Counted from the first letter of the stretch, positions 18,756 through 37,196 are shown. The stretch: DNA of 64,000 bases from Sedimentisphaerales bacterium (GCA_016934515.1 JAFGSR010000168.1:31875-95874), one strand, 5' to 3'. The notes: a model not told the origin generated them from the letters alone. A program made the numbers and translations.

Positions 18756-18775
18756 AAAAAAGAAGGATGTGTTAA

Positions 18776-21121
18776 ATGCCCAGTAGCACCGGAGTACGGG
18801 CTGGTAAAGCCTACGTTGAGGTCTTTGCGGACGATAGCCGCTTAGTACGGGGGCTGCGTGCGTCTGAGCGGCGAGTTCGGATGTTCGGCGTGAAGATCCA
18901 AGCTATCGGTACTCAGATGATGGCGTTTGGTACAATGGCTGCCCTGCCACTAGCGGGGGCAGCCAAGGCGTTTGCCGACTTCGAGCAGCAGATGGCCAAT
19001 GTTTCGACGATGCTTGACGATCCTGATAAGTGGATGCCGAACTACAGCAAAGAAATCAAAAAAATGGCCAAGGACTACGGTGAGTCAACTGAGGCGTTGG
19101 CCGGTGGTCTTTACGACATACTATCTGCGTCGATTCCGGCGGAGCAGGCGATTAGTGTTCTGGATGTGGCGGTCAGGGCGGCGAAAGCGGGCATGACTGA
19201 CACGGCTACATCGGCGGATGCGATTACCACGATGCTCAATTCTTATGGCCTCTCTGCTGATCGGGCGGCGGATGTTTCTGATTTACTGTTCAAAGTGGTC
19301 AAGCGGGGTAAAACTACTTTTGCGGAGCTGGCTCCGTCGATTGGTATGGTGGCGAGTGTTGCTGCTTCTGCTAATGTTCCACTGGAGGAACTTGGAGCAG
19401 GGTTGGCGGTGATGACTCGAAGCGGTGTGAGAACTGAGCGCGCGATTACTGCCATGAACGCGATTATCATGTCTTTTTTGAAGCCGACCGATGAAGCTGC
19501 TGCGTTAGCCAAGAAGTTCGGTGTTGAGTTGAATTCGGCAACGATCAAGACTGAAGGGTTGCAGGGTGCTTTTGCAAAAATCGCTTCGTTGCCGCCTGAT
19601 ATAATCGCAAATATTTTCCCGAATGTCAGAGCGATTCGTGGTATCGTTCCGGCGTTGAAAAACATGACCGGCTTTGTCGAAGATTTAGGGCAGATGAAAA
19701 ACCGGGCCGGTGCTGCGGATGCTGCTTTTAAGAAGATGACGGCAACGCTGATGTTTCAGCTTAACAAGATCAAGCAGCAGTTTATTGCGGTGTTTCGAGC
19801 GGCGGGTCAAGCTCTGGCTCCGTCGATTATTGCTGTGGGTAAGGCGATTGGTAAAGCGGCGGATGCAACAACGGCATGGATTGGCAGGCATCGGGGATTG
19901 GTAACTGCTGTCGGGTTGACCGTTGCGGCTATTTTGACGATGGGGGCAACGATGCTGTTGACCGGCGTACTTATCAAGGCCTTGGCTTTCAGTCTGGGAT
20001 TTCTCGGTAAAGCGATTGTTGTGCTGAAAGTTACAGTTAAAGCATTTGTTCTGACGATGAAAATTTTAGGCAAGTCGTTGCTACTGTTTACTTCTCCGAT
20101 TGGCGTGGTTGTTGCTGCGGTTATCGGTTTGGGGGTCGCTTGGTTGATCGTAAGCGGTAACATGGCCAAGGCGATAGGGTGGCTGAGTAAAAAGTTCGGT
20201 TCGCTCAAGGATGATATGGTAAAAACTTTCGGCGGGATTGGCGATGCTTTGGCGGCGGGTGATTTGTCGCTGGCGATGAAAATCCTGTGGCTCATGCTGA
20301 AAATGGAATGGGCAAAGGGGATTAACGGCCTGAAGGTGTTGTGGTTTAATTTCAAATCGTGGATGGTTGACCGGTGGTATGACTTGGTGGCTGGTGCACA
20401 AACGGCCATGCACGGAATCGAAGTGGCATGGATCGAAACTGTGTCGTTTTTAAAAAAAACCTGGACAACTTTTTCAAAGTGGCACGCCTTGGCTGTGCAA
20501 TCCACGGCGGGGGCGATGGCAAAGGCATGGGAATGGGCTAAAAATAAAATGAGCGGCGGTACGGAAGAAGACTTACAATTCCGTATGAATTACATCGACA
20601 AAGATGTTAATGATGCGATAGATAAAATTAACAAAGAGTTCGATGATAAGTTAGCTGGACTTGAAACACAGCGAGAAGGTCAGCGCGCCGAGTCGAAAGC
20701 TCTGCATGAAGGAACGTTGGCTGCTATTGAGCAGGAGGCTCAGGCAAAGCTTGGCGAGATGCGAAAAGAGTTCAACGTTAAAAATGCTGCTAATATGACT
20801 GAGCTGGAGAAGGCCAAACAGGAGTGGCAGGCGGCGTTGGACGAAGCTCGCCAAAAGAGGGCGGCTCTGGACACCGGTGATGGTAAAGCTCCTGAAGGCG
20901 GCGGCATACAGGGTAAAATCAACGATGCTCTTGCCGCACTTGGGGGCGGGGTGGGTGCGGTGAAAAAAGGTTCGGTGTCTGGAACTTTCAATGCGTTTGC
21001 GGCGGCGGGCATGGGGACCGGCAACGCCATGGACCGAACGGCTAAGGCTACTGAGCAGACTGCGAAGAACACTGAAAACTTGTTGCAGGAGGCCCGGTTT
21101 GGCGGGTTAAAATTCACATGA
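18776..21121 (+). CDS. Tail tape measure protein (TP901-like core)
   Basis: FADFEQQMANV, GKTTFAELAPSIG; Ala-rich helical; hydrophobic centre. Confidence 0.93.
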   Translation: MPSSTGVRAGKAYVEVFADDSRLVRGLRASERRVRMFGVKIQAIGTQMMAFGTMAALPLAGAAKAFADFEQQMANVSTMLDDPDKWMPNYSKEIKKMAKDYGESTEALAGGLYDILSASIPAEQAISVLDVAVRAAKAGMTDTATSADAITTMLNSYGLSADRAADVSDLLFKVVKRGKTTFAELAPSIGMVASVAASANVPLEELGAGLAVMTRSGVRTERAITAMNAIIMSFLKPTDEAAALAKKFGVELNSATIKTEGLQGAFAKIASLPPDIIANIFPNVRAIRGIVPALKNMTGFVEDLGQMKNRAGAADAAFKKMTATLMFQLNKIKQQFIAVFRAAGQALAPSIIAVGKAIGKAADATTAWIGRHRGLVTAVGLTVAAILTMGATMLLTGVLIKALAFSLGFLGKAIVVLKVTVKAFVLTMKILGKSLLLFTSPIGVVVAAVIGLGVAWLIVSGNMAKAIGWLSKKFGSLKDDMVKTFGGIGDALAAGDLSLAMKILWLMLKMEWAKGINGLKVLWFNFKSWMVDRWYDLVAGAQTAMHGIEVAWIETVSFLKKTWTTFSKWHALAVQSTAGAMAKAWEWAKNKMSGGTEEDLQFRMNYIDKDVNDAIDKINKEFDDKLAGLETQREGQRAESKALHEGTLAAIEQEAQAKLGEMRKEFNVKNAANMTELEKAKQEWQAALDEARQKRAALDTGDGKAPEGGGIQGKINDALAALGGGVGAVKKGSVSGTFNAFAAAGMGTGNAMDRTAKATEQTAKNTENLLQEARFGGLKFT

Positions 21122-21888
21122 GTGTAACGGTTGAAGAACAATTTGGAAGTCCACAGGTTCGCAAAGATTCCGCAACTCGAAAGTATATTATTTCAGGTAC
21201 GGCTGATGAAATGGCAGCGGAGGCAGCCCTGCTTGCGGAGGCGCCGACTATTTACTTATATATGCCTGTGCAGGATTACGCCGTTGATCCGCTGACTAAC
21301 GATAAGTGGGTGGGGACTGTGCAGTATGGGGTGTTAGCTGTTGCTTTGCAGGACGAGGCCTTTGAGTTCGATACCACCGGCGGCACGAAGCATATCACCC
21401 AGAGCTTAGGGACGATAGGTGCTTACGCTCCGGCAGGTTATACGGCCCCGGACTATGGTGGGGCTATTGGAGTCAACGGCGAGGAGGTTCAGGGCGTTGA
21501 TATAACCGTGCCTGCGTTTAAGTTCAGCTCGCATCATATAATTGAAAATGCCAGTGCTAACGCTTTGGTTTATCGCAACTTGACCGGCTGTGTGAACAAT
21601 GCGACTTTCATGGGGTTTGCCGCCGGTGAAGTTTTATTTTTAGGGGCCAGAGGTGTCGAGCAGCAATCGCCGGAGTGGGGCGTTGATTTTCATTTTGCCG
21701 CCGGAGCCAATGCTACCAATTTAATTGTTGGTGACATTACTGTTCTCGAAAAATACGCTTGGGATTACCTGTGGGTTCGCTACGAAACTGAGGAGGACGT
21801 TGCAGCCGGGTCTATTGTTAAACGTCCGGTAGCGGCTTACACCGAGCGTGTTTATCCGTGGGCGAACTTTGGTCTTTTAGGGATTTGA
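21118..21888 (+). CDS. Distal tail/tail-tip protein
   Basis: ATGA overlap with TMP; FEFDTTGGT, FAAGEVLFLGA, WDYLWVRY. Confidence 0.65.
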   Translation: MSVTVEEQFGSPQVRKDSATRKYIISGTADEMAAEAALLAEAPTIYLYMPVQDYAVDPLTNDKWVGTVQYGVLAVALQDEAFEFDTTGGTKHITQSLGTIGAYAPAGYTAPDYGGAIGVNGEEVQGVDITVPAFKFSSHHIIENASANALVYRNLTGCVNNATFMGFAAGEVLFLGARGVEQQSPEWGVDFHFAAGANATNLIVGDITVLEKYAWDYLWVRYETEEDVAAGSIVKRPVAAYTERVYPWANFGLLGI

Positions 21889-21893
21889 GCATA

Positions 21894-23057
21894 ATGTTAA
21901 AGCGAGTACAACCCGGTGATCGTCTGGAGATTTCGGCTAATGCTTACAATGCTTTTGTTGATGCGGCTCAGGCTAATATTGATCGGCAGCTTAGCACTAA
22001 TTTCAAGGCGGCAACTGGCGGCACAGCTACATCGGTTGTTCAGGTGCGGAATAATTCCGGGGCGGCTTGTGTGCGGTTTGGGGTGCTGGCGATAGGCACT
22101 CCGGTTATCTCGCCAGATGTTGATCTGGTGAAATTCCAGAACGGCGAGATTGTTTTTGAGGGGTACGCTCCAAGTGATGCTGACGCTGGTTTTTTTGGGA
22201 TTCTTTTAGAGCCGCTGGCAGATGGCAAAATCGGCAAGGTGGTTATCTCCGGTCTGTGTCATTGTCAGATTGATGTGCAGGCTGAGTCTCACGATTATGC
22301 GGAGGTAGTGGATGGTGAGAGTGGCTATCTGCAAAGTAATGTTGTCGGGTCGGCAACGATTTTATGGAAAGAGTCGGGCACGGGAACTAAGTGGGCCATG
22401 GTCAAGCTGGGTGGCGGCAGCAACGGTAACGGCAACGAATGGGCCGATATTCCGGTAGTTAATAATTCAGCGGAAACGATCCCGGCATGTAGCTTTGTGG
22501 AGTTGTCTGGTTGGAGCGAACCGGATTTGGCGTTTGAGATTATTAAGCCGACCTCAAGTCATCTTGATTTGCATGAGTATGCGATTGTGGGACAAGAAAT
22601 AGCCGTAGGTCAGATAGGGAGAGCTTATTCTGACGGTTACGCTACGGTAAGTCTTAGTAGTGTGGCTCATTGTCCTATAGGCCAGATCATCGGCCCGGTG
22701 AAAAATTATTATTATGGCCATGGTCATCAGCAGGGTTGGCGGGTTGTAAAGTATGTTTCTACCGCTTATCCGTACACGGCGGTAGTTCAGTATGTGGGGG
22801 CGGCTTTTCCGAGATTGTTTGTGATTCACGACACCGAAGCAGAGGACGGCAAATATCAGATCAAGGAAAGGTTTTGGAGTATAGAAAACGACCGCTTTGA
22901 AGATATATGGTCTGACGATCCAGCAACAACTTATGGCCAGACTATTGAAACGTCTGGGCATAGTTTGTCGGTCGGTGATTATGTATATACTATAGCTCCT
23001 AGAAGTGCTACCGGTGTTTATCGGATTGCACTTTTAGATTATGCGATGTGGCACTGA
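21894..23057 (+). CDS. Tail-tip/minor structural protein
   Basis: Follows distal tail gene; repeated VRNNSG/VVNNSA units. Confidence 0.6.
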   Translation: MLKRVQPGDRLEISANAYNAFVDAAQANIDRQLSTNFKAATGGTATSVVQVRNNSGAACVRFGVLAIGTPVISPDVDLVKFQNGEIVFEGYAPSDADAGFFGILLEPLADGKIGKVVISGLCHCQIDVQAESHDYAEVVDGESGYLQSNVVGSATILWKESGTGTKWAMVKLGGGSNGNGNEWADIPVVNNSAETIPACSFVELSGWSEPDLAFEIIKPTSSHLDLHEYAIVGQEIAVGQIGRAYSDGYATVSLSSVAHCPIGQIIGPVKNYYYGHGHQQGWRVVKYVSTAYPYTAVVQYVGAAFPRLFVIHDTEAEDGKYQIKERFWSIENDRFEDIWSDDPATTYGQTIETSGHSLSVGDYVYTIAPRSATGVYRIALLDYAMWH

Positions 23058-24166
23058 TTATGGGTTTTTCTGTATTACCTTTAGATACCACCAATGACTC
23101 AGTTATTATTTCAGCGGCTTACAATGAGCTGGTGGATGCCACTAACGAGTTTGCCAACATTTGGGGTGGGCCGGATGCTTATACCAAAATCGAAAGCCCG
23201 CAAGTCATTGACCGAAGCATATTCTCTAGCTTGAAAAACGCAGCCAAGGTTAGAGCTTATAATTACGCCTACATTGCTGTTGACCCGCCGGATAATTTTA
23301 CAAGAGTTCCGTGGGCGGATATTTGTCAGGAGTTGTTTGGCACTAGTGATTGGCCGGTTCGTAGTGGCAACAAGCAGAAAATTATCAAGGCTGAAATGAA
23401 TGACATTTACGAAGTAATCTGCTGGTCAAATAATAAATGGTACAAGGGTGCTATTGCGGCGGGGAGTGGTTGGGGCAGACTGACAACGGGTTATGTATAT
23501 CAGCCGGAATTTGGCGAAGAACCGACCATTCCCCCGGAATGGGCTTATGATACCAGGGAGGCTGCTGCTGATGCTTATGATGCTTACATAGCAGAGCCAT
23601 ATATCACAACGGGAGGTTCTCCGTATGATAATTATTTTTACGGTGGGTCTTCCGGCACAACTTTTGTTTGGAATAATCCGTATGGTCCAGAAAAAAAATA
23701 TGCAGTCGTTACCGACGTTCCCGGTGGACGCACTAAAGACGAGCAGACCATTTGTCGTATCCTGACGCCAAATTGTGCGGACATTGCCAGTGTGGTAGCT
23801 GAGGGTGTTGTGGGAAATTATTACGGTTATTCCGTAGAAGGTCCCGGTATTTACGAGCCTAACGCTCACGCATGGTCAGCTCAGTTGTACTTTGGTACTG
23901 ACACGCCGCCAGACAACTTTGAGGAGTTTCGTGAATATGGTGTTGAATGGGGAATAGCTTCTGGTCTTGGCCAGCCAGAAGCAAATAAAGCTACTGTTTT
24001 GTTAAGTAACGAGATTCCGATGAATACTTTTTTGTTTGTTCGCGTTGCTGGCAGGGGTCAAATTTACGGCGATTTAGACGATGTTGCATGGGGCAATGTA
24101 ACTCCATGGCGAACATCTTTTTATGTGACTGATTTTTGGTTTCAGCTCCGGTGGGAATATAGCTGA
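23048..24166 (+). CDS. Last late gene, putative receptor-binding/structural protein
   Basis: 372-aa aromatic-rich ORF overlapping the previous gene. Confidence 0.55.
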   Translation: MALIMGFSVLPLDTTNDSVIISAAYNELVDATNEFANIWGGPDAYTKIESPQVIDRSIFSSLKNAAKVRAYNYAYIAVDPPDNFTRVPWADICQELFGTSDWPVRSGNKQKIIKAEMNDIYEVICWSNNKWYKGAIAAGSGWGRLTTGYVYQPEFGEEPTIPPEWAYDTREAAADAYDAYIAEPYITTGGSPYDNYFYGGSSGTTFVWNNPYGPEKKYAVVTDVPGGRTKDEQTICRILTPNCADIASVVAEGVVGNYYGYSVEGPGIYEPNAHAWSAQLYFGTDTPPDNFEEFREYGVEWGIASGLGQPEANKATVLLSNEIPMNTFLFVRVAGRGQIYGDLDDVAWGNVTPWRTSFYVTDFWFQLRWEYS

Positions 24167-24192
24167 GCCTGTCCGCTTGAGGACGGGCAAAA
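24167..24192. terminator. Hairpin after late operon; A-run suggests it terminates the minus-strand CRISPR transcript
   Basis: GCCTGTCC-GCTTGA-GGACGGGC followed by AAAA. Confidence 0.45.
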
Positions 24193-24194
24193 GA

Positions 24195-24258
24195 GTTACC
24201 AGGCTGCCCTGATGAGGGCATTGCCGGAAATCTACGCATCCGTCAGGGGGTGCATTAG
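24195..24258 (+). repeat. 64-bp direct repeat, left copy, flanking CRISPR-cas cassette
   Basis: 56/64 identical by hand alignment to 31906-31970. Confidence 0.85.
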
Positions 24259-24281
24259 CCCACGCCCCCGCATGGGGCGAC
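24252..24281 (-). CRISPR. Degenerate type I-C-like repeat (relic)
   Basis: Minus strand GTCGCCCCATGCGGGGGCGTGGGCTAATGC vs I-C pattern GTCGCnCCnnnnGnGGGnGCGTGGATTGAAAC; 33 nt from the terminal array repeat. Confidence 0.7.
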
Positions 24282-24314
24282 ATTAAGTTTCGGGGCAAGT
24301 GGATAGATTCCGGT

Positions 24315-25333
24315 GTTTCCATCCACCCCCACACGTGTGGGGACAATGACACAGCATCCCCCGGCACCCCTGGACATACGGTTCACCCCCACACGCGTGG
24401 GGACAATGCTGTCCACTGGTTTTACCAAACTCACACGCCGGTTCACCCCCACACGCGTGGGGACAATCACGCCTCGATAATCTTAATCAGACCATCTAAT
24501 CGGTTCACCCCCACACGCGTGGGGACAATTTGCCGTACCGCTTTGCGACTCCGCCGGATTCGCGGTTCACCCCCACACGCGTGGGGACAATTAAACGCTT
24601 CCGGAATAGTAATTGCGGGTATATCGGTTCACCCCCACACGCGTGGGGACAATGTAATTGTAGGGCTGCTGATTAAAGGCAACGGTCGGTTCACCCCCAC
24701 ACGCGTGGGGACAATCTCAAAGCGTGCATCCAACGCACAACAATTTACGGTTCACCCCCACACGCGTGGGGACAATGACGCCTTTTTAAGCCGATATTTG
24801 CGATTGCTGCGGTTCACCCCCACACGCGTGGGGACAATTATTTGCGGCGACTGCTTAGAGGTGATGAAAACCGGTTCACCCCCACACGCGTGGGGACAAT
24901 GAAACCCATCGGTCCCCGGCCCGATATTATTACGGTTCACCCCCACACGCGTGGGGACAATACACCGGGCGGGAAAGTTTTCCAGAGATATCGGCGGTTC
25001 ACCCCCACACGCGTGGGGACAATGCCTCCATCTACAACTGTAATCTCGAACCAGTCGGTTCACCCCCACACGCGTGGGGACAATTTGCATCTTTGACGCC
25101 TGAATCTGTGGATCTTATCGGTTCACCCCCACACGCGTGGGGACAATGGGTGTTCCGACCGCTAGCGGGCGTTCGTGTTTTCGGTTCACCCCCACACGCG
25201 TGGGGACAATGCCGGCGGCGTCCAGGTAGATATAAATATTGGCCGGTTCACCCCCACACGCGTGGGGACAATGTTATCAAAATCAAACAACAGCGCGGCA
25301 TGCTCGGTTCACCCCCACACGCGTGGGGACAAT
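24315..25333 (-). CRISPR. Type I-E CRISPR array: 16 identical 29-bp repeats plus 1 variant terminal repeat, 16 spacers of 31-34 bp
   Basis: Repeat (minus) ATTGTCCCCACGCGTGTGGGGGTGAACCG; + strand starts 24379, 24439, 24501, 24563, 24625, 24687, 24748, 24810, 24872, 24933, 24995, 25056, 25119, 25182, 25244, 25305; variant at 24315-24347. Confidence 0.98.
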
Positions 25334-25381
25334 ACCAAAGTATTGTATTTTTAGAACATAACAAACACAAGATATATACCT
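25334..25381 (-). promoter_or_regulatory. CRISPR leader (short, AT-rich)
   Basis: 48 nt between cas2 stop and first repeat; degenerate repeat lies at the opposite end. Confidence 0.65.
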
Positions 25382-25690
25382 TTATTTAACTTCTGAAGAT
25401 GATAAATTCTTTTTTAAAGATAATTTCTTGATTAGCGTGAGTCCCTCCATTTCAGTCAAAATATAACGGCTATCGCCAAGCGAACGCCATTGATAGCCCT
25501 GCGCACAGGGATAATCCCATATTTGTAAAATATAACCCTGCTTACGTTTTTCCACGGCTTTTTCCCAGAGGATATCCCGTATTCTGACCGTTGGATTACC
25601 CAGAAATACGCCGCTGATCGGTTCGATCAGCCATCGAGACAGCTCGCCCTTCAAGCTCGCCGGAACGTTCTGTAAGATCATCACTAGCAT
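25382..25690 (-). CDS. cas2: Type I-E Cas2
   Basis: MLVMILQNVPASLKGELSRWLIEPISGVFLG...RDILW; overlaps cas1 3' end. Confidence 0.93.
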   Translation of the reverse strand: MLVMILQNVPASLKGELSRWLIEPISGVFLGNPTVRIRDILWEKAVEKRKQGYILQIWDYPCAQGYQWRSLGDSRYILTEMEGLTLIKKLSLKKNLSSSEVK

Positions 25691-26501
25691 CGAGCACCTC
25701 CGCTATATCCGGTAAAATTTTTTGCATAAGTTTTAACTCCCGAATTTTTTCTCTACATAGCGTCCGTGCTCTGCGTTCCACTTCTATGGTTCTTTGGGCC
25801 GTCTGAAATGCCACCGGGATCACCAGATCCGTTCTGTACAGATCCGCAATATCATAGACAAAGCTGAGCATTTTCCCGGTGTGAATAAAACCGATAGCCG
25901 GAGAATAGCCCGCCGACAGAATCGCCGCATGACATATTCCATAAAGACATGCGCTGGCCGCCGAGAGCGAGCGGTTAACCGGATCGGCATAATCCCACTT
26001 ATCCTGATCGTAATTACGACCATCCCAGCGAATCCCCCAGGTTTTGGCATTTTCTTCATAGGCAGCCCGCACACGATAGCCCTCTTTACCCCGTAAGGTT
26101 TCCAGAGACGTATCTTCCGGAATGATTTCCGGAAATCGCTTCTGATACATTCGCCGGGCCACCGCCAAACGCTGCTTTTCATCAACATACAATCGGGCCT
26201 GTTGTAATAAACGGTGGCTGGAATGTGTTCCGCCGGTACCGTGGGCATAAAGCCGGGTGCCGTCCTGCCCCGTCCAACAGATCATACAGTTATTTCCCGC
26301 CAGCGCCTTAAAAGCAGCGTGCGTAACGGAACTGCCCGGCCCCAGCATCACCAGAGAAAGTTGATCGATGGGGATGGGCATTTTCCCGGATTTATCACTG
26401 AACGTCAGAGAACCGGCGGTCCGGTCCAGCTTGCCCATTTCCAGGTACAGATGACTCCAACGGTCCTGGAATTTGGGAATTTCATGTAAATTTCTCGCCA
26501 T
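25596..26501 (-). CDS. cas1: Type I-E Cas1
   Basis: LGPGSSVTHAA, LRGKEGYRVR, GYSPAIGFIHTG, FVYDIADLY; GGAGG before ATG 26501. Confidence 0.96.
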   Translation of the reverse strand: MARNLHEIPKFQDRWSHLYLEMGKLDRTAGSLTFSDKSGKMPIPIDQLSLVMLGPGSSVTHAAFKALAGNNCMICWTGQDGTRLYAHGTGGTHSSHRLLQQARLYVDEKQRLAVARRMYQKRFPEIIPEDTSLETLRGKEGYRVRAAYEENAKTWGIRWDGRNYDQDKWDYADPVNRSLSAASACLYGICHAAILSAGYSPAIGFIHTGKMLSFVYDIADLYRTDLVIPVAFQTAQRTIEVERRARTLCREKIRELKLMQKILPDIAEVLDASDDLTERSGELEGRAVSMADRTDQRRISG

Positions 26502-26594
26502 GTTTCTACCCTCCAAATAAAGATGCATCCAATGAATCCTTACTACTAGAAAAAGAAACGCCTATTCACTTACCAAAGAACCTCTCCCCCGGCC

Positions 26595-27365
26595 TCACTG
26601 CACCGGGGCAATCGATAATAATCCAAAGCCAAACGCCTTGCCCGGACCAATGCCCCTGACCAATGTTTCGCGAAAAGCATTGGGATTAATAATTTCAAGT
26701 ATGCCCTCGTATCGAGCGGATCGGAGCCGCTGTCCCTTTCCTGCCTCATTTGTTTTGTTCATATACACATATCCCGGCTGGATAATCATATCATCACCGA
26801 GAGTAAACCCACACTTTTCACCCTTATGAACCAGCCATTCAAAAAGCTCTTCATTTGGCACCGAAACGCGTTTTCCATGCCGTCCTTTCTTGGACGTCCG
26901 TTCCTCGCTTGTAAGTGACTGTTTTTCTTGCTTACTGATAGTATCGATCTTTTTTGTTGGATTCGCCATCAATCGAAAACGGAATCTCTGGCCATTCTCG
27001 ATCGATGGAGTATATTTTTTCACTTTGTATGGAGCCGCCAGAAGGAAACCGGCATTATGAAAGGCATAATCCCAATCCGGTTCAATAGCCGACAAGACAA
27101 GTATCACCACATTTCCAGCCGGTTGCGGATCAATACGAAACAGAAAACCGTTTTCCGTTCCACGCTTGACATGAACCTGCCCTTCGCCGAAATTCGTGGG
27201 ATTGTAGGGCTTGAGAAAATGTTCATCGTTCCGGACACGTTCTTTCGACGGAAACGCCATGCACAACCGCTGATGCACACGGTATAAATTCCGCAGCCAC
27301 AATCGTCCCGGTCGTGGACGATCGGGATTGCTCCCCGTATCGATGAGCAATGTCGAGATAAACAT
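26595..27365 (-). CDS. cas6e: Type I-E Cas6e (CasE/Cse3)
   Basis: YRVHQRL, FRLMANPT, C-terminal GIGPGKAFGFGLLSI G-loop. Confidence 0.95.
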   Translation of the reverse strand: MFISTLLIDTGSNPDRPRPGRLWLRNLYRVHQRLCMAFPSKERVRNDEHFLKPYNPTNFGEGQVHVKRGTENGFLFRIDPQPAGNVVILVLSAIEPDWDYAFHNAGFLLAAPYKVKKYTPSIENGQRFRFRLMANPTKKIDTISKQEKQSLTSEERTSKKGRHGKRVSVPNEELFEWLVHKGEKCGFTLGDDMIIQPGYVYMNKTNEAGKGQRLRSARYEGILEIINPNAFRETLVRGIGPGKAFGFGLLSIAPVQ

Positions 27366-28465
27366 TATTCCACCTCCTCTGCCGAGAGTCTGCGCCGCCT
27401 TGTCTGTATTGAACGGAACATGATTATTTCTCTCCGCTTCTTAATGATCTCGTCGCGCCATTGCGGCTCTTCGGGGTTGATGCGGTCCATGCCCATACCA
27501 AGACCATATTCGAGCATGGTGACGGCGTCATGGCAGAGTCGGCAAAGAGATCGCAAGTCGTCATGGGTTTCATCCCCACCCGCCCGTCGATATGTGATAT
27601 GTTGCACAGTGGTCGCCGGAGATTTACATAAAACGCATAAGTGATGGTCGTGGTCAAGCCGTTCAGATCGAGCTTGACGATAGGCGGAGTTGACATAGTT
27701 TGCCCTGGGCCGTGAGGGTGCTGGCGTATGGTGCTGAATCGGTTGCGACTCCAGAGCCACATCGCCATCCCTACCCACGTGCAGTGAACCGCCAATAACG
27801 AAGCGAGCTTCATGCGCCGGCGGGTCAAAACTCACAGGAACATCATACCAGATTTCCGCATCCGCAGGGGCTTCGGTCTGTGAGGCCGACGGTCGCCAGT
27901 CACAAAGGTAATCAAGCGTTTGCGGAGCGGCGTCCTGCCTGCAACGTTTGCGCCAAGGGACCGCTTTCAGAGCAGTGAGTACATCAGGATAATCACCGCC
28001 TTTGGACTCCAAAAGAGGACGCGACGGCGGACAAGATTTGCGGCCCAGATAGAGCGGCCAGCATGGCGCTGCCAAAGCATCTGAAAGTTTGCCAATCAAG
28101 AAAGGCTCGCCCTGTAGAACTACCAGAAAGGAGGCGTCGCAAAGATACTCCCGACGTGTGAGCATAGCGCCGGATTTAGATTCTCCCTTGGCTGTGCGCA
28201 TCTGCATTTTGGCTCCAACCGTGTGATAATCCCACCATCTAATACCAGCCCGGTCGATACGCACACCCATCGTCAAGGCGGCCAGTCTCGGCAACCATTC
28301 GACGGAGGCTTCGGCACGAGTGATACCTAACGCTGCACAGAGTATCCCGATAACCGCCGACTTGGTCGGGGCGGGTCCGGTTCGCCGCACGACGAATTTA
28401 CTTTGGTGATCGCCCCAGGCCTGCATCGGACCTTCGAGGCGAAGATAAATTGTATTTATAGTCAT
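27365..28465 (-). CDS. cas5: Type I-E Cas5 with C-terminal HNH nuclease domain
   Basis: LRLEGPMQAWG, PTKSAVIGILCAALG, YLCDASF, LYLGRKSCPPS, then CVLC..VQHITY..ETHDDLRSLCRLCH; ATG 28465 overlaps cas7 stop. Confidence 0.93.
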   Translation of the reverse strand: MTINTIYLRLEGPMQAWGDHQSKFVVRRTGPAPTKSAVIGILCAALGITRAEASVEWLPRLAALTMGVRIDRAGIRWWDYHTVGAKMQMRTAKGESKSGAMLTRREYLCDASFLVVLQGEPFLIGKLSDALAAPCWPLYLGRKSCPPSRPLLESKGGDYPDVLTALKAVPWRKRCRQDAAPQTLDYLCDWRPSASQTEAPADAEIWYDVPVSFDPPAHEARFVIGGSLHVGRDGDVALESQPIQHHTPAPSRPRANYVNSAYRQARSERLDHDHHLCVLCKSPATTVQHITYRRAGGDETHDDLRSLCRLCHDAVTMLEYGLGMGMDRINPEEPQWRDEIIKKRREIIMFRSIQTRRRRLSAEEVE

Positions 28466-29652
28466 CAGCAAACCTCCGGATTGACAATTTCTTTCTGTAC
28501 TTCGCTCCAGTCAAAGCCAATCGTTCTGATGACGGCGGGAATCAACTCGTCCAGCGATTTGATCTTTTCTCCTTCGAGTAAAATTTCACTTTTATTTTCC
28601 ACAACCTGCAAAGCATGTCGATTATTAGGTGAGAACCAGAAACGCTGTTGTGGCTTTCCATAGCCGATTTCCATATCGTAAACATATTGGCTCAGTTGGG
28701 CGACACTCTGCTTGATAAGATCGCGTTCACCATGTTCGACCGGATTAGCAAAGGCGTTGGCGTAGCTAACGGGATTACCTTTCTTCTTGATTTCTATCAA
28801 GATACCATCAGGATGGTTATGAGCGGCATGGCTGTTCTGTTTGCCTGAAGGATTAGTCTTGGCAGCACCATACAAGAAAGCACCGACGGTGTGGGCGGCT
28901 AGTTGTTCATTACCGTCTAGGTTTCTAAGAAGTTGTTCCCAGTGAATGGCGAAATACTTGTAGAAGCATGCCGAGGCGTAGAGGGCCTCGCCGATATGGG
29001 CACCGCCTGCGTCTTCACCAGGAACATCATCGGCGGCAACGAAATAATCCACTTCCGGTCGCGCTTCATGGGTACTGATAGCATGAGCAACCTGCGCCGC
29101 AGCTTCGACGGTTAAATTCAATCCTTTCCAGACGCCTTTGCCGTTATCTCCGCCCTTAGGTTCGAGCATCCGGCCAAAAAGAGCCATGTCAGGAATATAA
29201 ACATGCTCGGCGATCTGATGGGCAAACTGAGTGGCGGTTTCCTTGTCGGACTTATTCTCTTTAAATAGTTGCTTCATTTTATCAATCGCCTTATTGCTGA
29301 CATACACGATCCCGGCGCTCTTGTCATCATCGGCGGCGATGTCCGCTTCGGCCTTCGCTTTTCTTTTTTTCGCTTTAGGAGCAATGCCGCAAAGCTCAAG
29401 TACTTTCATCGCCCGCTTGAAATCTTCACTGTCGCCGTTTGCACCGGCAATTACCTGTGCCAGCCGCCGCGTTCGCAATCCGCCAAGCAAAGGTTTGAAT
29501 TCCTTGCTAATGCGGATGCTACGCTTAATACATTGGCTGGAGATGCGAGAGCGCAACACGCCTCCGAAATAGCAGGTCTTTGGGGCCCCCAGATCGTCCC
29601 GGTTAAGATTGGCCGGGCTGTGATTTTGAACCATGTGCATTTCAATTAACAT
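28465..29652 (-). CDS. cas7: Type I-E Cas7 (CasC/Cse4)
   Basis: NLNRDDLGAPK, RISSQCIKR, DMALFGRM, QVAHAISTH, PSGKQNSHA. Confidence 0.96.
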   Translation of the reverse strand: MLIEMHMVQNHSPANLNRDDLGAPKTCYFGGVLRSRISSQCIKRSIRISKEFKPLLGGLRTRRLAQVIAGANGDSEDFKRAMKVLELCGIAPKAKKRKAKAEADIAADDDKSAGIVYVSNKAIDKMKQLFKENKSDKETATQFAHQIAEHVYIPDMALFGRMLEPKGGDNGKGVWKGLNLTVEAAAQVAHAISTHEARPEVDYFVAADDVPGEDAGGAHIGEALYASACFYKYFAIHWEQLLRNLDGNEQLAAHTVGAFLYGAAKTNPSGKQNSHAAHNHPDGILIEIKKKGNPVSYANAFANPVEHGERDLIKQSVAQLSQYVYDMEIGYGKPQQRFWFSPNNRHALQVVENKSEILLEGEKIKSLDELIPAVIRTIGFDWSEVQKEIVNPEVC

Positions 29653-30146
29653 CAGAGTCTCCTTTCAAGGTATTGTAAATATTGTTCGGCCCATTGACGC
29701 CGTTTGTTTGGACGTCGCCAGATGGAAATATCATCAGTCAATCTTACCCAGTCGAGCTTGAGTTCACTGGATGCAATAGTATCCAGAGCCCATTGCAGCA
29801 CCGGTTCGATGCGGTCAAATGGCAGCATAAGCAATTCGTCGAATTTACGTCGGCGGCGATTCGCTTCCCTGTTATCCTTCACTCGACAGCGGGCGAGTTG
29901 CCCCGCCAACAGTGCCCCGGCATCATGCTCAATGGGACAATAAGCGTAAAGTTTGGCGATCAGCCAGGCTGCTCCACGCCAGGGCGTTTTGGGATCTTTC
30001 TGTCTCAGCGGCCACCATAGGCCCGCAAAGAGATCGAAGGCATCCACCGACTCATCCAGACTTCGACCTGAATGGCTGCGCAGCAAACTCAGATCGCCGT
30101 TTTGTAAACTACTCAAGACTTGGATATATCTCTCGGTTGCGATCAT
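29652..30146 (-). CDS. cas11: Type I-E Cas11 (CasB/Cse2)
   Basis: Helical 164 aa; LDWVRLTDDISIW..RRQWAEQY; between cas8e and cas7. Confidence 0.88.
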   Translation of the reverse strand: MIATERYIQVLSSLQNGDLSLLRSHSGRSLDESVDAFDLFAGLWWPLRQKDPKTPWRGAAWLIAKLYAYCPIEHDAGALLAGQLARCRVKDNREANRRRRKFDELLMLPFDRIEPVLQWALDTIASSELKLDWVRLTDDISIWRRPNKRRQWAEQYLQYLERRL

Positions 30147-31570
30147 GCATCGGCTCCTTTCTTGCGACCAGCGCGGTCCGTTGCGATTATTTTGGGTTTC
30201 ATATTGGGCTTGACGGCAGCAATCTCACGACGCCTCTGTACTTCAACGGTTGTATAGCCGGGTGCGAGCGATTGTGCGACAACGGACATCATGGGGCTAT
30301 AATCCCCGGCAACCTGCTCCCATGCCTCCGGCTCACCAGTCAATAATGCGTGTATCTTGTCAAAAACCTGCGTCTCGATATGAGGTCTAACTGAATCAAT
30401 CATTGGACGAATCTCTGCATGTTTGCGTGATGATTTCTTAGGTTTACAACGGCTTATAAGCTTGCTGTTTTCTTTGCTCCAATAATCAATCTTCTCAATA
30501 GCCTTTTGAGGATTGAAAGAATCCGTATTCACATTAAAAGATACTTCGCATTTTTTTGCTTCGATGTATTTATCATTTTGGACAGTAGCAAAACTAACAG
30601 CAATAAACCTATGAGGACTAATCGCATTCTTTTGTATAAGTGCTCCTATCACTAACTTAGTCCATCGCCCAGAAGCTGCATCATAAGCTTTTAATGAATC
30701 GTTTGGCTTTAGAACGTTTTTGTTGTCATAAATAACATGTGGATCGTCCCAGTTCCTTCTCTCATCAACAGACTCTGCTTTTGTACTGCCGATGCCAGCA
30801 AATACCGATTGCTTTATGAGTTTTGCTTTGACTCCACAGGCAATGCAGTTTTCCTCGTCTGTTTTGGGAGTATCCAGCCATACTCTCCTAGGCAGCCATG
30901 TAAGCCCAGTCAGCAATGCCACCTTCCCTTTTGCTGGAAGCTGAATATCAGGTTTTACCCAGGCAGGTTCCCCAAAATCATTTTGTTTTTGATCTTGCCA
31001 TGAAAGCAACAATGACTCAAAAAGGCAAGAACCCAAAGGAATAATATAGATTGGTGGTTTTGAATTGATGCCCGGTGGTTTACCCCTCCCGCCAGATGTA
31101 GCAAATGATGGTAAGCGTAATAAACCTTTAGCGCAACAAGCAGGACACAAACCATTATCTTTATCCTTAGAATGGCAAAAATGATACCAATTTGAACCTG
31201 TAGGTATTTCCTGCATCAGATAATTAGCGGTAAGCTTATCAGGTTCCCCGGTTTTAGCTTGATATTGATAGAACCGCTTTCCATCGCCGAACAGGTTAAA
31301 ACAATCACGGTTCTCATCGAGTTTGGTGAACCAATCATCTGGAAACGACTTCTCGGCGTAGGCGGATACATAGTCAGGTGGATTACCCTTGCACCAATAC
31401 AATAGCGCCAGTAGAAATCGGAAAATCGCCACACGGTCCATCGGATTACTGGCCGCGATTTGGCGAATCCTGTGGGCATCAGTCAATGCTTGAAAAATTC
31501 CAACTCGGTCATATTTGCCATTACGATAAAGAACCGGTATCCATTTCTCATCTAGTAAATTATAGTTCAT
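30143..31570 (-). CDS. cas8e: Type I-E Cas8e (CasA/Cse1)
   Basis: YNLLDEKWIPV, RFLLALLY, FNLFGDGKRFYQ, WLPRRVWL, DPHV. Confidence 0.92.
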   Translation of the reverse strand: MNYNLLDEKWIPVLYRNGKYDRVGIFQALTDAHRIRQIAASNPMDRVAIFRFLLALLYWCKGNPPDYVSAYAEKSFPDDWFTKLDENRDCFNLFGDGKRFYQYQAKTGEPDKLTANYLMQEIPTGSNWYHFCHSKDKDNGLCPACCAKGLLRLPSFATSGGRGKPPGINSKPPIYIIPLGSCLFESLLLSWQDQKQNDFGEPAWVKPDIQLPAKGKVALLTGLTWLPRRVWLDTPKTDEENCIACGVKAKLIKQSVFAGIGSTKAESVDERRNWDDPHVIYDNKNVLKPNDSLKAYDAASGRWTKLVIGALIQKNAISPHRFIAVSFATVQNDKYIEAKKCEVSFNVNTDSFNPQKAIEKIDYWSKENSKLISRCKPKKSSRKHAEIRPMIDSVRPHIETQVFDKIHALLTGEPEAWEQVAGDYSPMMSVVAQSLAPGYTTVEVQRRREIAAVKPNMKPKIIATDRAGRKKGADA

Positions 31571-31703
31571 AGAATTCTCCCTGATAGTGTTTTGTAACTT
31601 GGTATTGGGGGCATCTTTTATCGAGCAGCCACCCTTCCGGGTCCGAATGGGCGTAGAATACTTGTTTTGGTTTATCTGGACCTGCTGTTGCTGTTATTTC
31701 CAT
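31560..31703 (-). pseudogene. 47-aa ORF, putative 5' remnant of a Cas3 HD gene
   Basis: MEITATAGPDKPKQVFYAHSDPEGW...; GAGGT RBS; occupies the cas3 slot and overlaps cas8e start. Confidence 0.5.
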
Positions 31704-31735
31704 ATGTACCTCGTTTAAATGTCATATAGAAATCC

Positions 31736-31770
31736 ATTATAGGGCTTCGGAAGGAGATAATCTTCTCCCG
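31736..31770 (-). promoter_or_regulatory. Candidate cas operon promoter with overlapping inverted repeat
   Basis: TATAAT on minus strand at 31736-31741; imperfect palindrome CGGAAGGAGA-TAA-TCTTCTCCCG at 31748-31770. Confidence 0.45.
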
Positions 31771-31905
31771 TTAAGAATTCACGGCCAAAGCCAGCATTTG
31801 TTGCCACAATGTAATCCGCCTGAGCGAAAAAAGCAACGGTTTTTGTGGATAATATCGGTAACTCTTTGTGGCGTATGGCGTTGAAGAGCGGTATTCAGGG
31901 TGAGG

Positions 31906-31970
31906 GTTACCAGGCTGCCGGGCTGGGGGCATTGCAGGAAAACTACGCATCCGTCTGGGGGGTGGATTAG
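31906..31970 (+). repeat. 65-bp direct repeat, right copy
   Basis: GTTACCAGGCTGCC...GGGCATTGC.GGAAA.CTACGCATCCGTC.GGGGG..ATTAG shared with 24195-24258. Confidence 0.85.
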
Positions 31971-32372
31971 GGGTCGTCTTGCCATTATTGGGCAGGTGCG
32001 GGTGCGAAGAGTTCGGGCGGGTGGGAGGGGATTGGAGACAGAAAACAGTTGATTTTATGAATTTAGCCACCTAACAAGCACATCGTATTCGCTATAACCT
32101 ATTATGTTGTAGGGAGATACAAAAACGTACCATAATTCTATTCTTTGAATCATATAAATTTGTGAATTTTCACTTTTTTTTAATCAACAATTTGGCTTTT
32201 GAAACGCCTATTAAAAATTAGCACCTGTGGTCTGTTTTTAAACTGAAGAAGGGACAGATAAAACTCAATAAAACCGACAATATTATCCTTGCATTACCGT
32301 TTAATGTCTGTTAAAATAAACAATAATCACTTTTTCACGGACGAAAACAACACTTTTTGCAGGAGAAAAACC

Positions 32373-32981
32373 ATGTTCCACAAAGCAAAACTTTTTACCA
32401 TAGCTTTAACCGGATTTGTGGTATTTTTTGCAAATTGTACCAAAGCCGATGTACTAACTTTTGATGATATAGGAACCACACCAATTGATGCTGAACCTAT
32501 CCCAGATGGATATGGAGGATTCGATTGGTATACTATTTTGTATCTCGACCCATCCATTGTAACCGTAGATTCAGGTTATGCTAATGGCATAGTATCGGGA
32601 GATTATGTGGCACTTGTAAGTAATTATTCTCATGAAGGTATAGGATGGCTTACCGGTAACCCATTCACATTCAATGGCGCTTACTTTACATCGGTTTGGC
32701 GAGACGACCTTAATATCCAGGTTGACGGTTATCTCGATAACAGCCTCATCTACACGACTACTGTAACAATTGACACGATCGATCCAGTGTGGTTCCAGTT
32801 CGAATATGAAAATATCGATGAACTAAAATTTTCTGCTTCCGGTGGTACAGTTCACGATGGCTATATATGGGACAATACCCAGTTTGTGATTGATAACTTC
32901 TCATACATCCCGGAACCATCAACAATTTTACTGTTTACTTTCGGGGGGCTTCTGTTGAAAAGAATCCACAAGCAACTTTAA
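32373..32981 (+). CDS. PEP-CTERM sorting-domain protein
   Basis: Signal peptide; LTFDD..IPDGYGGFDW; C-terminal IPEPSTILLFTFGGLLLKR; AGGAG RBS. Confidence 0.9.
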   Translation: MFHKAKLFTIALTGFVVFFANCTKADVLTFDDIGTTPIDAEPIPDGYGGFDWYTILYLDPSIVTVDSGYANGIVSGDYVALVSNYSHEGIGWLTGNPFTFNGAYFTSVWRDDLNIQVDGYLDNSLIYTTTVTIDTIDPVWFQFEYENIDELKFSASGGTVHDGYIWDNTQFVIDNFSYIPEPSTILLFTFGGLLLKRIHKQL

Positions 32982-33020
32982 TCTAATCAATTCACTAATT
33001 TTTTTTCAGGAGGAACAAGA

Positions 33021-36000
33021 ATGTTCAACACAAACTCTATCAACACAAAAAAATTATCGGTCGTTTTCTTAGCAATAATTCTTTTGTCAATATTAACAAC
33101 AACCGCAAACGCAAAATCTATTTACGCTATTACAGATCATGGTTATAGAAATGTGCCACCGTTTAGTGCTCCCGCCAAGATTACCGCATACAATATTGAT
33201 AGTGACAAAATAGACTTCCAGAATATTTATACGCTTAACCAGAGTGATTACCCAACAGGAATGTTTCGCGGGCCTGTAGGTTTGGCAATTGATTTAGATT
33301 CGGGATATATATTTTGTACCCACGAAAACTATCCGGACCCTGAAAAGGTGGAAGGCTTGAGAGGCATTCAATTAATCAATGGAAAATCGCTTACCGACGA
33401 AGGTGTATTGGAAATCCCCGGCACTCCCGACTTATCCGGTGTTGTTTATGACCATAAACGCCAAAAAGTATATTCTGTTGAGCGGGGCTCGGGGGAATTA
33501 TATGTTTTGGATTGGGATGCTCAGGAAGCATCACTTACCCTGCAAGGGAGCGGGCCGGTAATATTAAAGGATTCTCTTGACGTTGAAATTAGCGGTGGAG
33601 GTCTGGCATTGGATGAAACCGATGATATTTTATATGTAACTCAATTGTCAAGCGGAGGTCATTCGGGCGCATCTAACATAGTCTATTGTTACGACCCAAA
33701 CGATTGGACCTATATAGATAGTATCGAAATCTACAACCTTGGATCGACAGAACTTAATGCAGTAGGAGTTGCGGTATATAACGATGGCGTGGAAACAAAT
33801 TACCTTTACACCGGCGCCTGGGGCTTTAGTGGCAGTCATAATTACCTGGTAAGAACCGATTTGAATCTATACGAGGCTGATTCTGAAGAGCCTAACAGTT
33901 TCCGGTTTGCCAAGGACATCGGCACAAATGTTGCCGGAATAGCCGTGGACCCCAATACCGGCCTGGTTTACGTGACCACCTCTGACAATCAGGTAGCGGT
34001 CTTTGATACCTCTAACTGGACATCCGACCCTAACCAAACCATCGAGCCCAACGATTCCGAAACCTACATGGTTCACGGACCGGCTGGCATTGCTGTGGGG
34101 TCCCAGTACAAACCGCGGTGGTTGCATATTGAAAAAACCGATAATATAGATACGGAAGAATGTATCTCGCCCGAAGCGGCTGACCCAAACATTACTTATA
34201 CTATCGTTTTCAGGCCGTTAGGTTACGATGCCAACGATGTTTTGATTACGGATTATCTGCCCTGGGGTGTGGATTTTTACTCAGCTAATCCGGATAGTGG
34301 TACTTGGGATCCTGAAACCCGCACCTACACCTGGTATCGTTCTGCTATCGACGCGAACGACCCGAACGAAGAACTTGAGTTAGTAGTACAGGTGAATACC
34401 CTGGCCATGCCGGGCGGGACGATAACCAACGAAGTGGAAATAGAAAGCCAGAATTATTTCAACTGGACTACCGAAGATACCGACATCTGCTGTTGGGGCG
34501 GCAATATCATTTACGTCGATGCCAGTCTCGGCGACTTCGGTCTCAACAACGGCACCTCATGGAGCCTTGCCTATACCAGCATTCAGGATGCTATGGACCG
34601 AGCAAGTGGCGGCTGTTACGATACCTGGCAAATATGGGTCGCCCAGGGCACCTATACACCGGACACAGACGATGACACGTTCGAGTTGGAGCCAAACCTC
34701 GCCCTCTACGGCGGTTTTCCTTCAGGCGGCGGCACCTGGGGCAGCCGCAAGCCGGGTATCTACGAAACCATACTCTCCGGCCAGGTAAGCCAAGATGAAA
34801 AATGCAGCGCTGTCGTAACCGCCGACGGCGTAAACTCAACCGCGGTAATTGACGGCTTTGTAATTCAGGACGGCTCGGACTACGGCATCTCCTGCACCAA
34901 CACCGCCTACCCGATTATCGCCAACTGTCGGGTGCAGGCCAACGGTAATTACACAGCGTACGACGCCGGAATTTATTGCAACAATTCCGAGCCAAACATC
35001 GTCAACTGTATCGTTAAACATAATCGCTCGCACGGCATCTATTTTTATAATAATTCCGATGTGTCGATAACGAACTGCGTGGTTGAATCAAATAGTAATA
35101 ACGGCATCTACTGTAACGATGACTCCAACCCGATAATCACCAATTGCACCATTGAATATAACAGCGGCACCGGTATATATTGCGACGACTCCGACCCGAA
35201 TATAATCAATTGCCTCATCAACGGCAATAACGAAGACGGCGTTTATTGTGGAAATGATTCCGACCTCTTAATCATCGGCTCCATTATCGAAAACAACGGC
35301 GATAACGGCATCGAGTGTTCCCATTACTCGGCTTCGATAGACGTCTCCACCAGCAAAATTCGCGATAACGATGCTCATGGCATCTATTGTCTTTCTTCAT
35401 CCGCAGCCATCATCAAAAACAACTGGATAAATCACAACAAATCCGATGGCCTGCGACTATACAGCACCTCTCCCTCAACCGTTCGCAACAATACCATTGT
35501 TTATAATGAAAATTATGGCATCTACCAAACCGCCGGTACCGCCAACATCAGCAACTGTATCCTCTGGGGCAACAACACACAATTAGGCGGCAATTGCACC
35601 GCAACCTACAGTTGCATAGAAAACGGCAACGACGAAAACGGCAATATCAACCAAGACCCGAACTTTGCCTACAAGAACCCCGAATCCTTTAACTTCCATC
35701 TCAGTCCCGTTTCACCCTGCATCGACAAGGGAAATTCAACCGACATTTCCGACGAAACCGACATCGACGGCGACTATCGTGTGTTGGATGACGATGTCGA
35801 TATGGGTGCCGACGAATTCGCCTGCTACGACGTATTCAACCAGGCTGATTTCAATGCCGACGGCGTCGTAAATCTGATCGACTATTCCTACTTAGCTGGC
35901 GTCTGGATGGACGTCAGCAACGAACCCAATTGGGTCCCCGATTATGACTTGGTCGCCGACAACCAGATAGACCTGCTCGATCTGAACGCTTTCGACAACA

Positions 36001-36425: not shown

Positions 36426-36439
36426 TCAGTGCCAGGTGT

Positions 36440-36480
36440 GTTATATCCCTGTTTTTCACCGCCAAAAACAGGAATATAAC
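36440..36480 (+). terminator. Long hairpin downstream of the 1134-aa gene
   Basis: GTTATATCCCTGTTTTT-N7-AAAAACAGGAATATAAC (17-bp arms, 1 mismatch). Confidence 0.55.
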
Positions 36481-36737
36481 CCTTTGTATTTGATGTGCTT
36501 ATAGTTCCAATAAACGTCACGGTGAACTATCCCCGAACCCTGCACCCTGTTCCTGCTGACCTTGGGCGGTATGGCTTTACGGAGGAGAAGTCGCCGATGC
36601 TAGGCACAATGGCAGTATTCAAGCGGCAAAAGTTAAAAAAAATCCACACCAGCTCCGTCTTTTTTTGGCAATTTAGGTAAGAGTACCTCAATCATGCTTA
36701 AAAAAATGCAGCGTTCTATTATTTTATAATTTTCAGC

Positions 36738-36765
36738 TTGATTGAAGCGTATTCTGTGCTACACT
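36738..36765 (+). promoter_or_regulatory. Sigma70-like promoter upstream of HTH gene, related to copies A/B
   Basis: TTGATT-N16-TACACT; CAGCTTGA as in copy A and TGTGCTA as in copies A and B. Confidence 0.5.
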
Positions 36766-36863
36766 AAAGAGTTATGAGTGAAAATATTAGAATATCTTCA
36801 TGTGAGCCTGGCTCGGACAGCGGCAATATACTGCCTGAACTCAATAATTAGGGAGCAGTTACC

Positions 36864-37097: not shown

Positions 37098-37196
37098 GAA
37101 AAAAGTAGAGCGCCATTTATGTCGGATAGAGTTCTGACAAATTTTATAAACTCTTAAATCTTAGTACTTTATAATTGGGTCTTACAATTAAAAAAA

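Follow-up and report, generated by a model that had tools for sequence, protein, structure and literature searches.

Introduction

In canonical type I-E CRISPR-Cas systems, such as those of E. coli and T. fusca, Cascade acts together with Cas3. A five-gene derivative of type I-E has been described in which Cas5 is fused to an HNH domain and cas3 is missing from most examples (PMC10910872). Cas5-HNH Cascade cuts double-stranded DNA without Cas3 in a manner that depends on a protospacer-adjacent motif (PAM), with cut sites beyond the protospacer (3-4 bp on the target strand, 8 bp on the non-target strand); it also cleaves single-stranded DNA collaterally and edits human cells (PMC10910872). Here, we describe a locus of this type in a 64,000-nt stretch of DNA (C8:31875-95874; hereafter, the window) from the metagenome-assembled genome (MAG) of a Sedimentisphaerales bacterium (G000; 253 contigs, 87.8% complete). 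The locus very probably represents an intact I-E HNH-Cascade with Cas1-Cas2 and a 16-spacer array, carried as a cassette in a 48.1-kb temperate prophage.

The characterized Cas5-HNH system is that of Candidatus Cloacimonetes (PMC10910872), for which structures are available (8YB6, 8YHA, 8ZLU and others; PMC11794572). Its HNH domain occupies the place of the second Cas11 of canonical Cascade and touches both Cas6 and Cas11 (PMC11794572). Unlike canonical I-E complexes, this Cascade contains one Cas11 rather than two, and it cuts at a defined site rather than processively (PMC10910872). Substitutions H310A and D324A abolish cleavage and H333A has no effect; the four cysteines make up a zinc-finger-like site, and when it is lost, so are both DNA binding and cutting (PMC11794572). 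A comparable solution is seen in a type I-F1 system from Selenomonas sp., in which an HNH domain on a Cascade subunit likewise replaces Cas3 and makes precise cuts in double-stranded DNA; there, the domain is on Cas8f instead of Cas5, the system has four genes, and the cuts leave 5' overhangs as opposed to the 3' overhangs of Cas5-HNH (PMC11459484, PMC11480323).

Complete CRISPR-Cas loci are also known from phage genomes, including the I-F system of Vibrio phage ICP1 and those of jumbo phages, and such systems are described as rare in phages below 200 kb (2024 review, PMC11656645). ICP1 is a lytic phage with a type I-F system; the carrier described here is a predicted 48-kb temperate phage with the Cas3-less I-E HNH form. 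Passages of the 2024 review of CRISPR in mobile elements mention HNH only for type IV DinG-HNH (PMC11656645). The word 'prophage' does not occur in the main text of PMC10910872, nor 'phage' or 'prophage' in that of PMC11794572. We found no report of a phage-borne Cas5-HNH system in the literature, a statement that applies to main texts, as supplements (for example, Data S2 of PMC10910872) may list genomic contexts.

Results

A Type I-E Locus with a Cas5-HNH Fusion

The locus spans window positions 24319-31570 on the minus strand. A preliminary description of this DNA had claimed a complete I-E operon plus array that retains its adaptation genes, and calls of open reading frames (ORFs) combined with Pfam and NCBIfam profile scans bear this out: the order is cas8e-cas11-cas7-cas5-cas6e-cas1-cas2 followed by the array, all seven Cas proteins exceed the curated cut-offs with Pfam and with NCBIfam I-E models, and the seven ORFs are full-length and contiguous, with ends that overlap or tightly abut. 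The five effector genes are cas8e/cse1 (30143-31570; 475 aa; PF09481, E = 1.7e-42; TIGR02547, 87 bits against a cut-off of 70), cas11/cse2 (29652-30146; 164 aa; TIGR02548, 32.3 bits, cut-off 28.5), cas7e (28465-29652; 395 aa; TIGR01869, 252.7 bits, cut-off 178), the cas5e-HNH fusion (27365-28471; 368 aa; TIGR01868, 159.6 bits over residues 7-219, cut-off 69) and cas6e (26595-27365; 256 aa; TIGR01907, 91 bits, cut-off 45). They are followed by cas1e (25596-26528; 310 aa; TIGR03638, 367 bits, cut-off 216) and cas2e (25382-25690; 102 aa; TIGR01873, 58.6 bits, cut-off 33.15), all on the minus strand.

Downstream on this strand, the CRISPR array (24319-25333) has 16 unique spacers, each 31-34 nt long, set between 17 copies of a 29-nt repeat (ATTGTCCCCACGCGTGTGGGGGTGAACCG on the transcribed strand). 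Sixteen of the repeats are identical; the leader-distal one (24319-24347) is degenerate and, being the farthest from cas2, fits a leader that adjoins cas2. A putative AT-rich leader, assigned by its position, occupies the minus strand between the cas2 stop codon and the first repeat (25334-25381), and probably extends into the 3' end of cas2. The Cas1 of this locus and this array are the only ones detected in the MAG. GC content is uniform across the cas genes (48.9%), the phage module (49.8%) and the genome (49.2%). Having no cas3, the module measures 7.25 kb, about 15% of the phage genome, and the cassette as a whole roughly 7.7 kb. A candidate 18th, decayed repeat in the trailer and the direct repeat that brackets the cassette (described below) was rejected, its local alignment score of 20 falling within the range of shuffled sequences (mean 15.6, maximum 28).

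Cas5 had been noted as oversized (about 366 aa, compared to the usual 220-250 or so), with a zinc-binding HNH domain after the Cas5 portion, and both points hold. Its 368 residues compare with 224-254 aa for solved canonical Cas5e chains; the Cas5e domain takes up residues 7-220, and the Pfam HNH family PF01844 matches residues 279-317 (nt 27521-27637; 25.8 bits against a cut-off of 21.4, E = 1.2e-5). When all PDB sequences were searched, the best match was the Ca. Cloacimonetes Cas5-HNH chain 8yb6_A (E = 2.1e-126, essentially full length), with the canonical Cas5e chains next and far behind. The residues named beforehand align exactly to this chain: H291, D305 and H314 correspond to catalytic-site residues H310, D324 and H333, and C279, C282, C310 and C313 to the zinc cysteines C298, C301, C329 and C332. 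Cas8e and Cas11 likewise find their best PDB matches in this complex (8yb6_J, 1.1e-68, and 8yb6_K, 9.3e-30, respectively).

Judged by these alignments, the locus is an orthologue of the characterized Cas5-HNH I-E variant, and its architecture and mechanism are to that extent already known, as the preliminary description allowed in calling the architecture not wholly new. The two share the same five effector genes, the lack of cas3, spacers of about 32 nt, and a C-terminal HNH domain joined to Cas5 by a long linker, with the same H/D/H residues and four zinc cysteines. They differ in organism and by sequence divergence, and the locus described here has cas1-cas2 and an array adjacent to the effector genes and lies in a prophage. 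Cas8e aligns only from about residue 81-92 of the solved chain and so has a shorter N-terminus than the deposited construct. With canonical I-E systems the locus shares the Cascade subunit, Cas1e and Cas2e families and the style of repeat; unlike them, it has no Cas3, and its nuclease is built into Cascade.

The absence of cas3, which had been claimed for the window, extends to the MAG: none of its 253 contigs encodes a protein above the cut-off for the Cas3 core (TIGR01587, best 27 bits against 102), the Cas3 HD domain (TIGR01596, 32.9 against 43.45) or Pfam Cas3_HD (PF18019, 20.9 against 23.1). Weak HD and helicase matches on contigs C102 and C144, considered as a divergent Cas3, were identified as a 7TM-HD receptor and RecG. 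Of five further genomes that carry Cas5-HNH loci, three lack a Cas3 core; in the other two, a Cas3 core is encoded about 1 Mb away.

The Locus Lies within a Predicted Temperate Prophage

The cassette is contained in a 48.1-kb insertion bounded by a perfect 45-bp direct repeat, the predicted attachment (att) pair, of which only two copies exist on the contig. The left copy, attL (C8:21215-21259), lies 10.6 kb left of the window and consists of the 5' half of a tRNA-Pro(CGG) gene (C8:21180-21254) plus five upstream bases; the identical attR is at window positions 37427-37471. tRNA prediction finds the tRNA-Pro at attL only, and no tRNA in the window. The attL and attR arms have in common a 13-mer of a repeated TGTAGGAA motif, and TGTAGGAAG-type repeats occur near attR (37190-37360). 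To the left of the window, the order on C8 is tRNA-Pro, a tyrosine integrase (C8:21399-22574; PF00589), tRNA-Met, a SNF2 helicase, a primase-like protein and a UvrD-like helicase. A phage structural module follows on the plus strand (window 6693-24166), with large terminase, portal, capsid-protease fusion, decoration protein, head-tail joining protein, tail tube and tape measure, and then three ORFs without assignment, the last of which ends at 24166.

A same-genus genome (G001) has an intact tRNA-Pro(CGG) directly against sequence equivalent to the right flank of the element (85-87% identical). This arrangement is that expected of the empty, unoccupied integration site, and by this comparison the right junction is verified; only that junction could be checked because the G001 contig begins at the tRNA. 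Taken with the att pair, the integrase and the hallmark genes, it supports the proposal that the cassette lies inside an att-bounded prophage, and we classify the element, from its predicted genes, as a temperate, siphovirus-like prophage in tRNA-Pro(CGG). One amendment is needed to the suggested position of the cassette, with the last tail gene on one side and the att site on the other: it does come after the tail genes, but it does not abut attR, from which it is separated by 5.9 kb with three ORFs.

The att core sits on the 5' half of tRNA-Pro(CGG), whereas the classical att core is a tRNA 3' end. As a result, the intact tRNA at attL now has phage DNA upstream, in its promoter region, while its native upstream region has been left at attR, beside a 40-nt tRNA fragment.

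Relatives of the Cassette and Their Genomic Contexts

To place the locus among its relatives, one genome per species was scanned, which yielded 122 loci; the best 80 of these, together with two loci from IMG/VR, made up a set of 82 that were fetched. The best 80 of the 122 show 54-70% identity and belong to Planctomycetota, Acidobacteriota, Chloroflexota, Nitrospirota, Desulfobacterota, Armatimonadota and other phyla. Among the 82 fetched loci, cas1 was detectable in 69, cas2 in 66 and an array in 56. In many of the 42 listed genome loci that have 6 kb or more of flank, the sequence all but ends at the array.

Three of these loci are associated with phage genes. The first is a predicted provirus from IMG/VR (G031, locus L022; 52.7 kb, CheckV 73%) that carries a complete cassette and array between terL and portal, on the strand of the structural genes; its integrase, terL, portal, capsid and decoration protein are 41%, 44%, 56%, 42% and 54% identical, respectively, to those of the prophage described here. 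In an 8.3-kb IMG/VR viral contig (L021), likewise a predicted provirus or fragment of one, genes for portal (phrog_21, 1.6e-68), head protease and scaffold lie immediately beside cas8e. The third (L026) lies on a delta-proteobacterial MAG contig; of the chromosomal loci fetched, it has the Cas5-HNH that most resembles the one described here (71%). Some 3 kb upstream of its cas8e, at 2039-3762 and 4114-4782, are a large-terminase gene split into two ORFs and a HicB-like gene, with histidine kinases downstream, so that L026 looks like a decayed prophage remnant that kept the cassette.

Two other relatives depart from the usual gene content. In the complete genome of Fontivita pretiosa, the locus (L090; 6210-20786) is expanded by about 5.4 kb, including a second Cas6e-like ORF, between cas6e and cas1; its Cas7 aligns as two separated pieces and its array has at least 36 repeats. 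Locus L080 (10001-13341) retains Cas5-HNH (from residue 41), cas6e, cas1, cas2 and a three-repeat array, with no cas8e, cas11 or cas7 detected upstream, and is a degraded or rearranged copy.

Phylogenies of Cas5-HNH suggest that the phage-borne copies do not share a single origin. A quick tree was built from 77 rows, five of the 82 loci having been dropped for a match shorter than 340 residues or one containing a stop; on it, the three phage-borne copies require three changes, and the starred branches force at least two. For a careful tree and an approximately unbiased (AU) test, 29 of the 77 rows were selected once the quick tree had been seen, namely neighbors of the three phage rows plus an outer clade. 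The three phage-borne copies formed one clade in 0 of 200 bootstrap trees: the copy described here pairs with an Armatimonadota locus (96/87), and the G031 copy falls within a Planctomycetota group. The AU test rejects a clade of these two copies (log-likelihood difference 57.8, p = 0.00027), a grouping that was named after the tree had been seen. Related phages with non-sister cassettes at different positions point to independent capture or replacement.

The description of the prophage as 'planctomycete-type' could not be established. The clustering of the G031 cassette with Planctomycetota and one PSD1 match (PF07587), itself a mere hint of the host phylum, are the only hints in that direction.

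Proposed Mode of Action

By analogy with the characterized orthologue, Cas6e would process the array transcript (pre-crRNA), and Cascade would assemble with one Cas11, the HNH domain tethered to Cas5 taking the place of the second. Cas8e would then read the PAM, an R-loop would form, and its completion would activate the HNH domain to make a double-strand break at the PAM-distal end. In the context of a prophage, such a system could give the lysogen heritable, updatable immunity against competing phages and plasmids or other mobile elements. This context also suggests that a complete adaptive system, once rid of the large cas3 gene, can fit into a capsid-limited genome of 48 kb.

Spacer Targets

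Spacers were compared with several sequence sets. In the MAG itself (blastn-short) there is no self-target, the best match being 20 nt with 2 mismatches. Comparison of the spacers with the 82 related loci, and of the arrays of those loci with this prophage, gave only a 16-nt chance match. INPHARED phages, searched with the whole array, gave nothing better than a 36-nt match at 83% (E = 4). In 300 same-order genomes, all matches were array-to-array or to single repeats. Exact 24-mers from spacers 1 and 2 of the 16 had no match in IMG/VR, nor did spacer 1 in contigs of JGI metagenomes. No protospacer was thus found in any set searched, and a PAM could not be derived. Because no spacer target was found, the role of superinfection or competition weapon proposed for the system in the preliminary description stays conjectural.

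Cassette Edges and Assembly

The cassette is bracketed by a 68-nt imperfect direct repeat of about 85% identity, with its left copy at 24192-24258 and its right copy at 31903-31970, beyond cas8e. These are the only two copies in the genome, and the repeat is found in none of the 82 related loci and not in G031. One contig assembled from X1, a run of the sediment sample that holds this DNA, tracks the sequence to 31902 and continues with unlike sequence, breaking exactly at the edge of the right copy (31902/31903); as X1 has at least six loose ends in this stretch, this is a hint that the unit 24259-31902 also exists in another context in the same sample. The protein encoded at 23048-24166, next to the cassette, was used to look for cassette-less relatives of the phage; it has no relatives in IMG/VR, G031 or metagenome contigs, so the cassette's unoccupied insertion site could not be shown.

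Relatives of this DNA may also occur elsewhere. Runs X2 and X3, from other studies (sediment, 2018, and seawater, 2021), contain contigs about 90% identical to most of the cas genes, as well as small pieces of the tape-measure and beta-helix genes (19651-22254 and 33973-35925); the contigs are too short to link cassette with phage. Phage and cassette may thus both have a close relative in these samples.

Alternative Explanations

The lack of protospacers is one of several observations that weigh against an intact, phage-borne defense cassette. With the MAG 87.8% complete, a cas3 gene could reside on a missing contig. Homologues of terminase, portal or capsid proteins occur in the flanks of only three of the 82 fetched loci (L021, L022 and L026). 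A Pfam tally of 105 of the 313 flanking ORFs, from 24 of the 80 genome loci, returned mostly cellular families and three tyrosine recombinases; no terminase, portal or capsid family was represented by two or more of these ORFs, although singletons could hide, given that only the commonest families were listed. At the locus itself, the ORFs at 32289-36425 have no match to phage families (PHROGs), so that phage genes are shown only to the left of the cassette. No X1 contig covers 19000-24207, which leaves the junction between tail gene and array without independent re-assembly, and an RNA run (X4) yielded only short repeat-bearing contigs with other spacers, uninformative on this array.

Four other explanations were weighed against these data. 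In X1, the array region (24208-25509) has a summed contig depth of 1650-1950 compared to about 10 elsewhere (contig depth being a crude measure), and the same repeats there separate many different sequences of 27-31 nt; the sample thus contains numerous further arrays built on this repeat, which belong to other strains or organisms. Given so many same-repeat arrays and the gap in X1 coverage at 19000-24207, it had to be considered that C8 is a chimera joined through CRISPR repeats, with a cas operon from another organism's chromosome, and the many relatives whose sequence ends almost at the array would fit such a join. We regard this as extremely improbable, for four reasons. The two copies of the bracketing repeat flank the supposed join, one on either side. 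attR and its arm motifs, situated right of the cas operon, have their match in attL, on the left of the phage genes. X1 contigs whose ends overlap by 8-15 nt extend from cas1 across cas8e, the right-arm genes and attR as far as the host flank. Finally, GC content is uniform. That the locus is an inactive relic, capable of neither interference nor adaptation, is also very improbable. Some relatives are visibly degraded, as in the loss of cas8e, cas11 and cas7 from L080 and the split terminase beside the cassette in L026; here, however, all seven ORFs are full-length with closely packed ends, all tested catalytic and zinc residues are conserved, and the array has 16 identical repeats and 16 spacers that all differ.

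The remaining two explanations accept the locus as sound and concern its relation to the phage. The cassette, alone or together with the genes on its right, could be a separate island or remnant that is nested in the prophage or in tandem with it and is not packaged. The flanking 68-nt repeat, the right-hand ORFs without PHROG match, the X1 contig that departs at 31902/31903 and the orientation of the cassette, opposite to the structural genes, would all suit such an arrangement. Yet the contig has just two copies of the att core, no recombinase was found among the ORFs scanned within 24192-37426, the cassettes of G031 and L021 lie between or beside head-module genes and so inside a phage genome, and a nested cassette would still excise and be packaged with the 48.1-kb element; we consider a separate island quite unlikely. 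Somewhat less remote, though still unlikely, is a system that serves the phage rather than the lysogen, as a counter-defense or host-takeover weapon that cuts host defense islands or satellites during lytic growth. ICP1 provides a published precedent with its I-F system (PMC11656645), and spacers that match no known phage leave non-phage targets possible. Against it, no spacer matches the host MAG or the 300 same-order genomes, and a temperate phage present as a 1:1 prophage, which the X1 contig depths suggest as far as this crude measure goes (9.4-12.5 for the element, 10.1 for the host flank), gains from protection of its host. An intact I-E HNH-Cascade cassette within a temperate prophage, protecting the lysogen, is accordingly the explanation that we favor.

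Implications

The architecture, mechanism and structure of Cas5-HNH Cascade are already in print; its carriage by a temperate phage of ordinary size (48 kb) is what is unusual. To this we add the non-sister cassette of G031, the cassette beside the portal gene in L021 and the 68-nt repeat that brackets the cassette here. CRISPR-Cas systems with adaptation genes being rare in phages below 200 kb, a 48-kb temperate carrier provides a concrete test case, which is strengthened by the non-sister cassette at another site in G031. The prophage accounts for the only CRISPR-Cas system that was found in this MAG.

We consider it possible, though somewhat short of probable, that temperate phages of ordinary size, belonging to one lineage, have repeatedly taken up the Cas3-less HNH-Cascade and its adaptation module as a discrete cassette, at different sites and from different donors. 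Here the site would be the one that follows the tail genes, in G031 the interval from terminase to portal and in L021 a position beside portal, and chromosomal copies such as L026 may be leftovers of such phages. If so, the loss of Cas3 lets full adaptive immunity fit a capsid-limited genome, and phages would be a main vehicle by which the variant spreads across phyla. The locus thereby raises the questions of whether Cas3 loss enables phage carriage and whether prophages spread the variant between phyla. It also raises the question of how a type I-E system adapts without Cas3, which matters because primed adaptation in canonical I-E depends on Cas3. In addition, Cas5-HNH Cascade is under development as a compact, precise type I genome editor, to which a diverged orthologue with its own array, accompanied by 122 relatives across many phyla, adds sequence diversity.

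Other Features of the Prophage and Its Flank

Three plus-strand ORFs lie between the cassette and attR. Two of these fall within 32289-36425: one of 230 aa without a family match, and one of 1134 aa with right-handed beta-helix, NosD and DUF11 matches, for which a tail fiber or tailspike is a guess. The third (36864-37097; 77 aa) has weak matches to phage transcriptional repressor families (phrog_4, E = 1.4e-4).

Within the structural module, a 686-aa ORF (10846-12906) matches families of both the head maturation protease and the major head protein (phrog_4523, 2.6e-83), and is the capsid-protease fusion listed above; provirus G031 has the same fusion. In the early region, an ORF resembling TET-associated glycosyltransferases (PF20691, 4.9e-10) adjoins a ParB/DNA-methyltransferase-like ORF (together, window 1542-3018), and the pair may constitute a DNA-modification module; no TET/JBP partner for the glycosyltransferase-like protein was found among the 10 prophage ORFs scanned. 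The prophage has its own tRNA-Met(CAT) (C8:24198-24273, equivalent to L020:12199-12274), immediately upstream of the gene for the SNF2 helicase. The host region on the right of the prophage contains a 4203-aa ORF on the minus strand (window 44120-56731).

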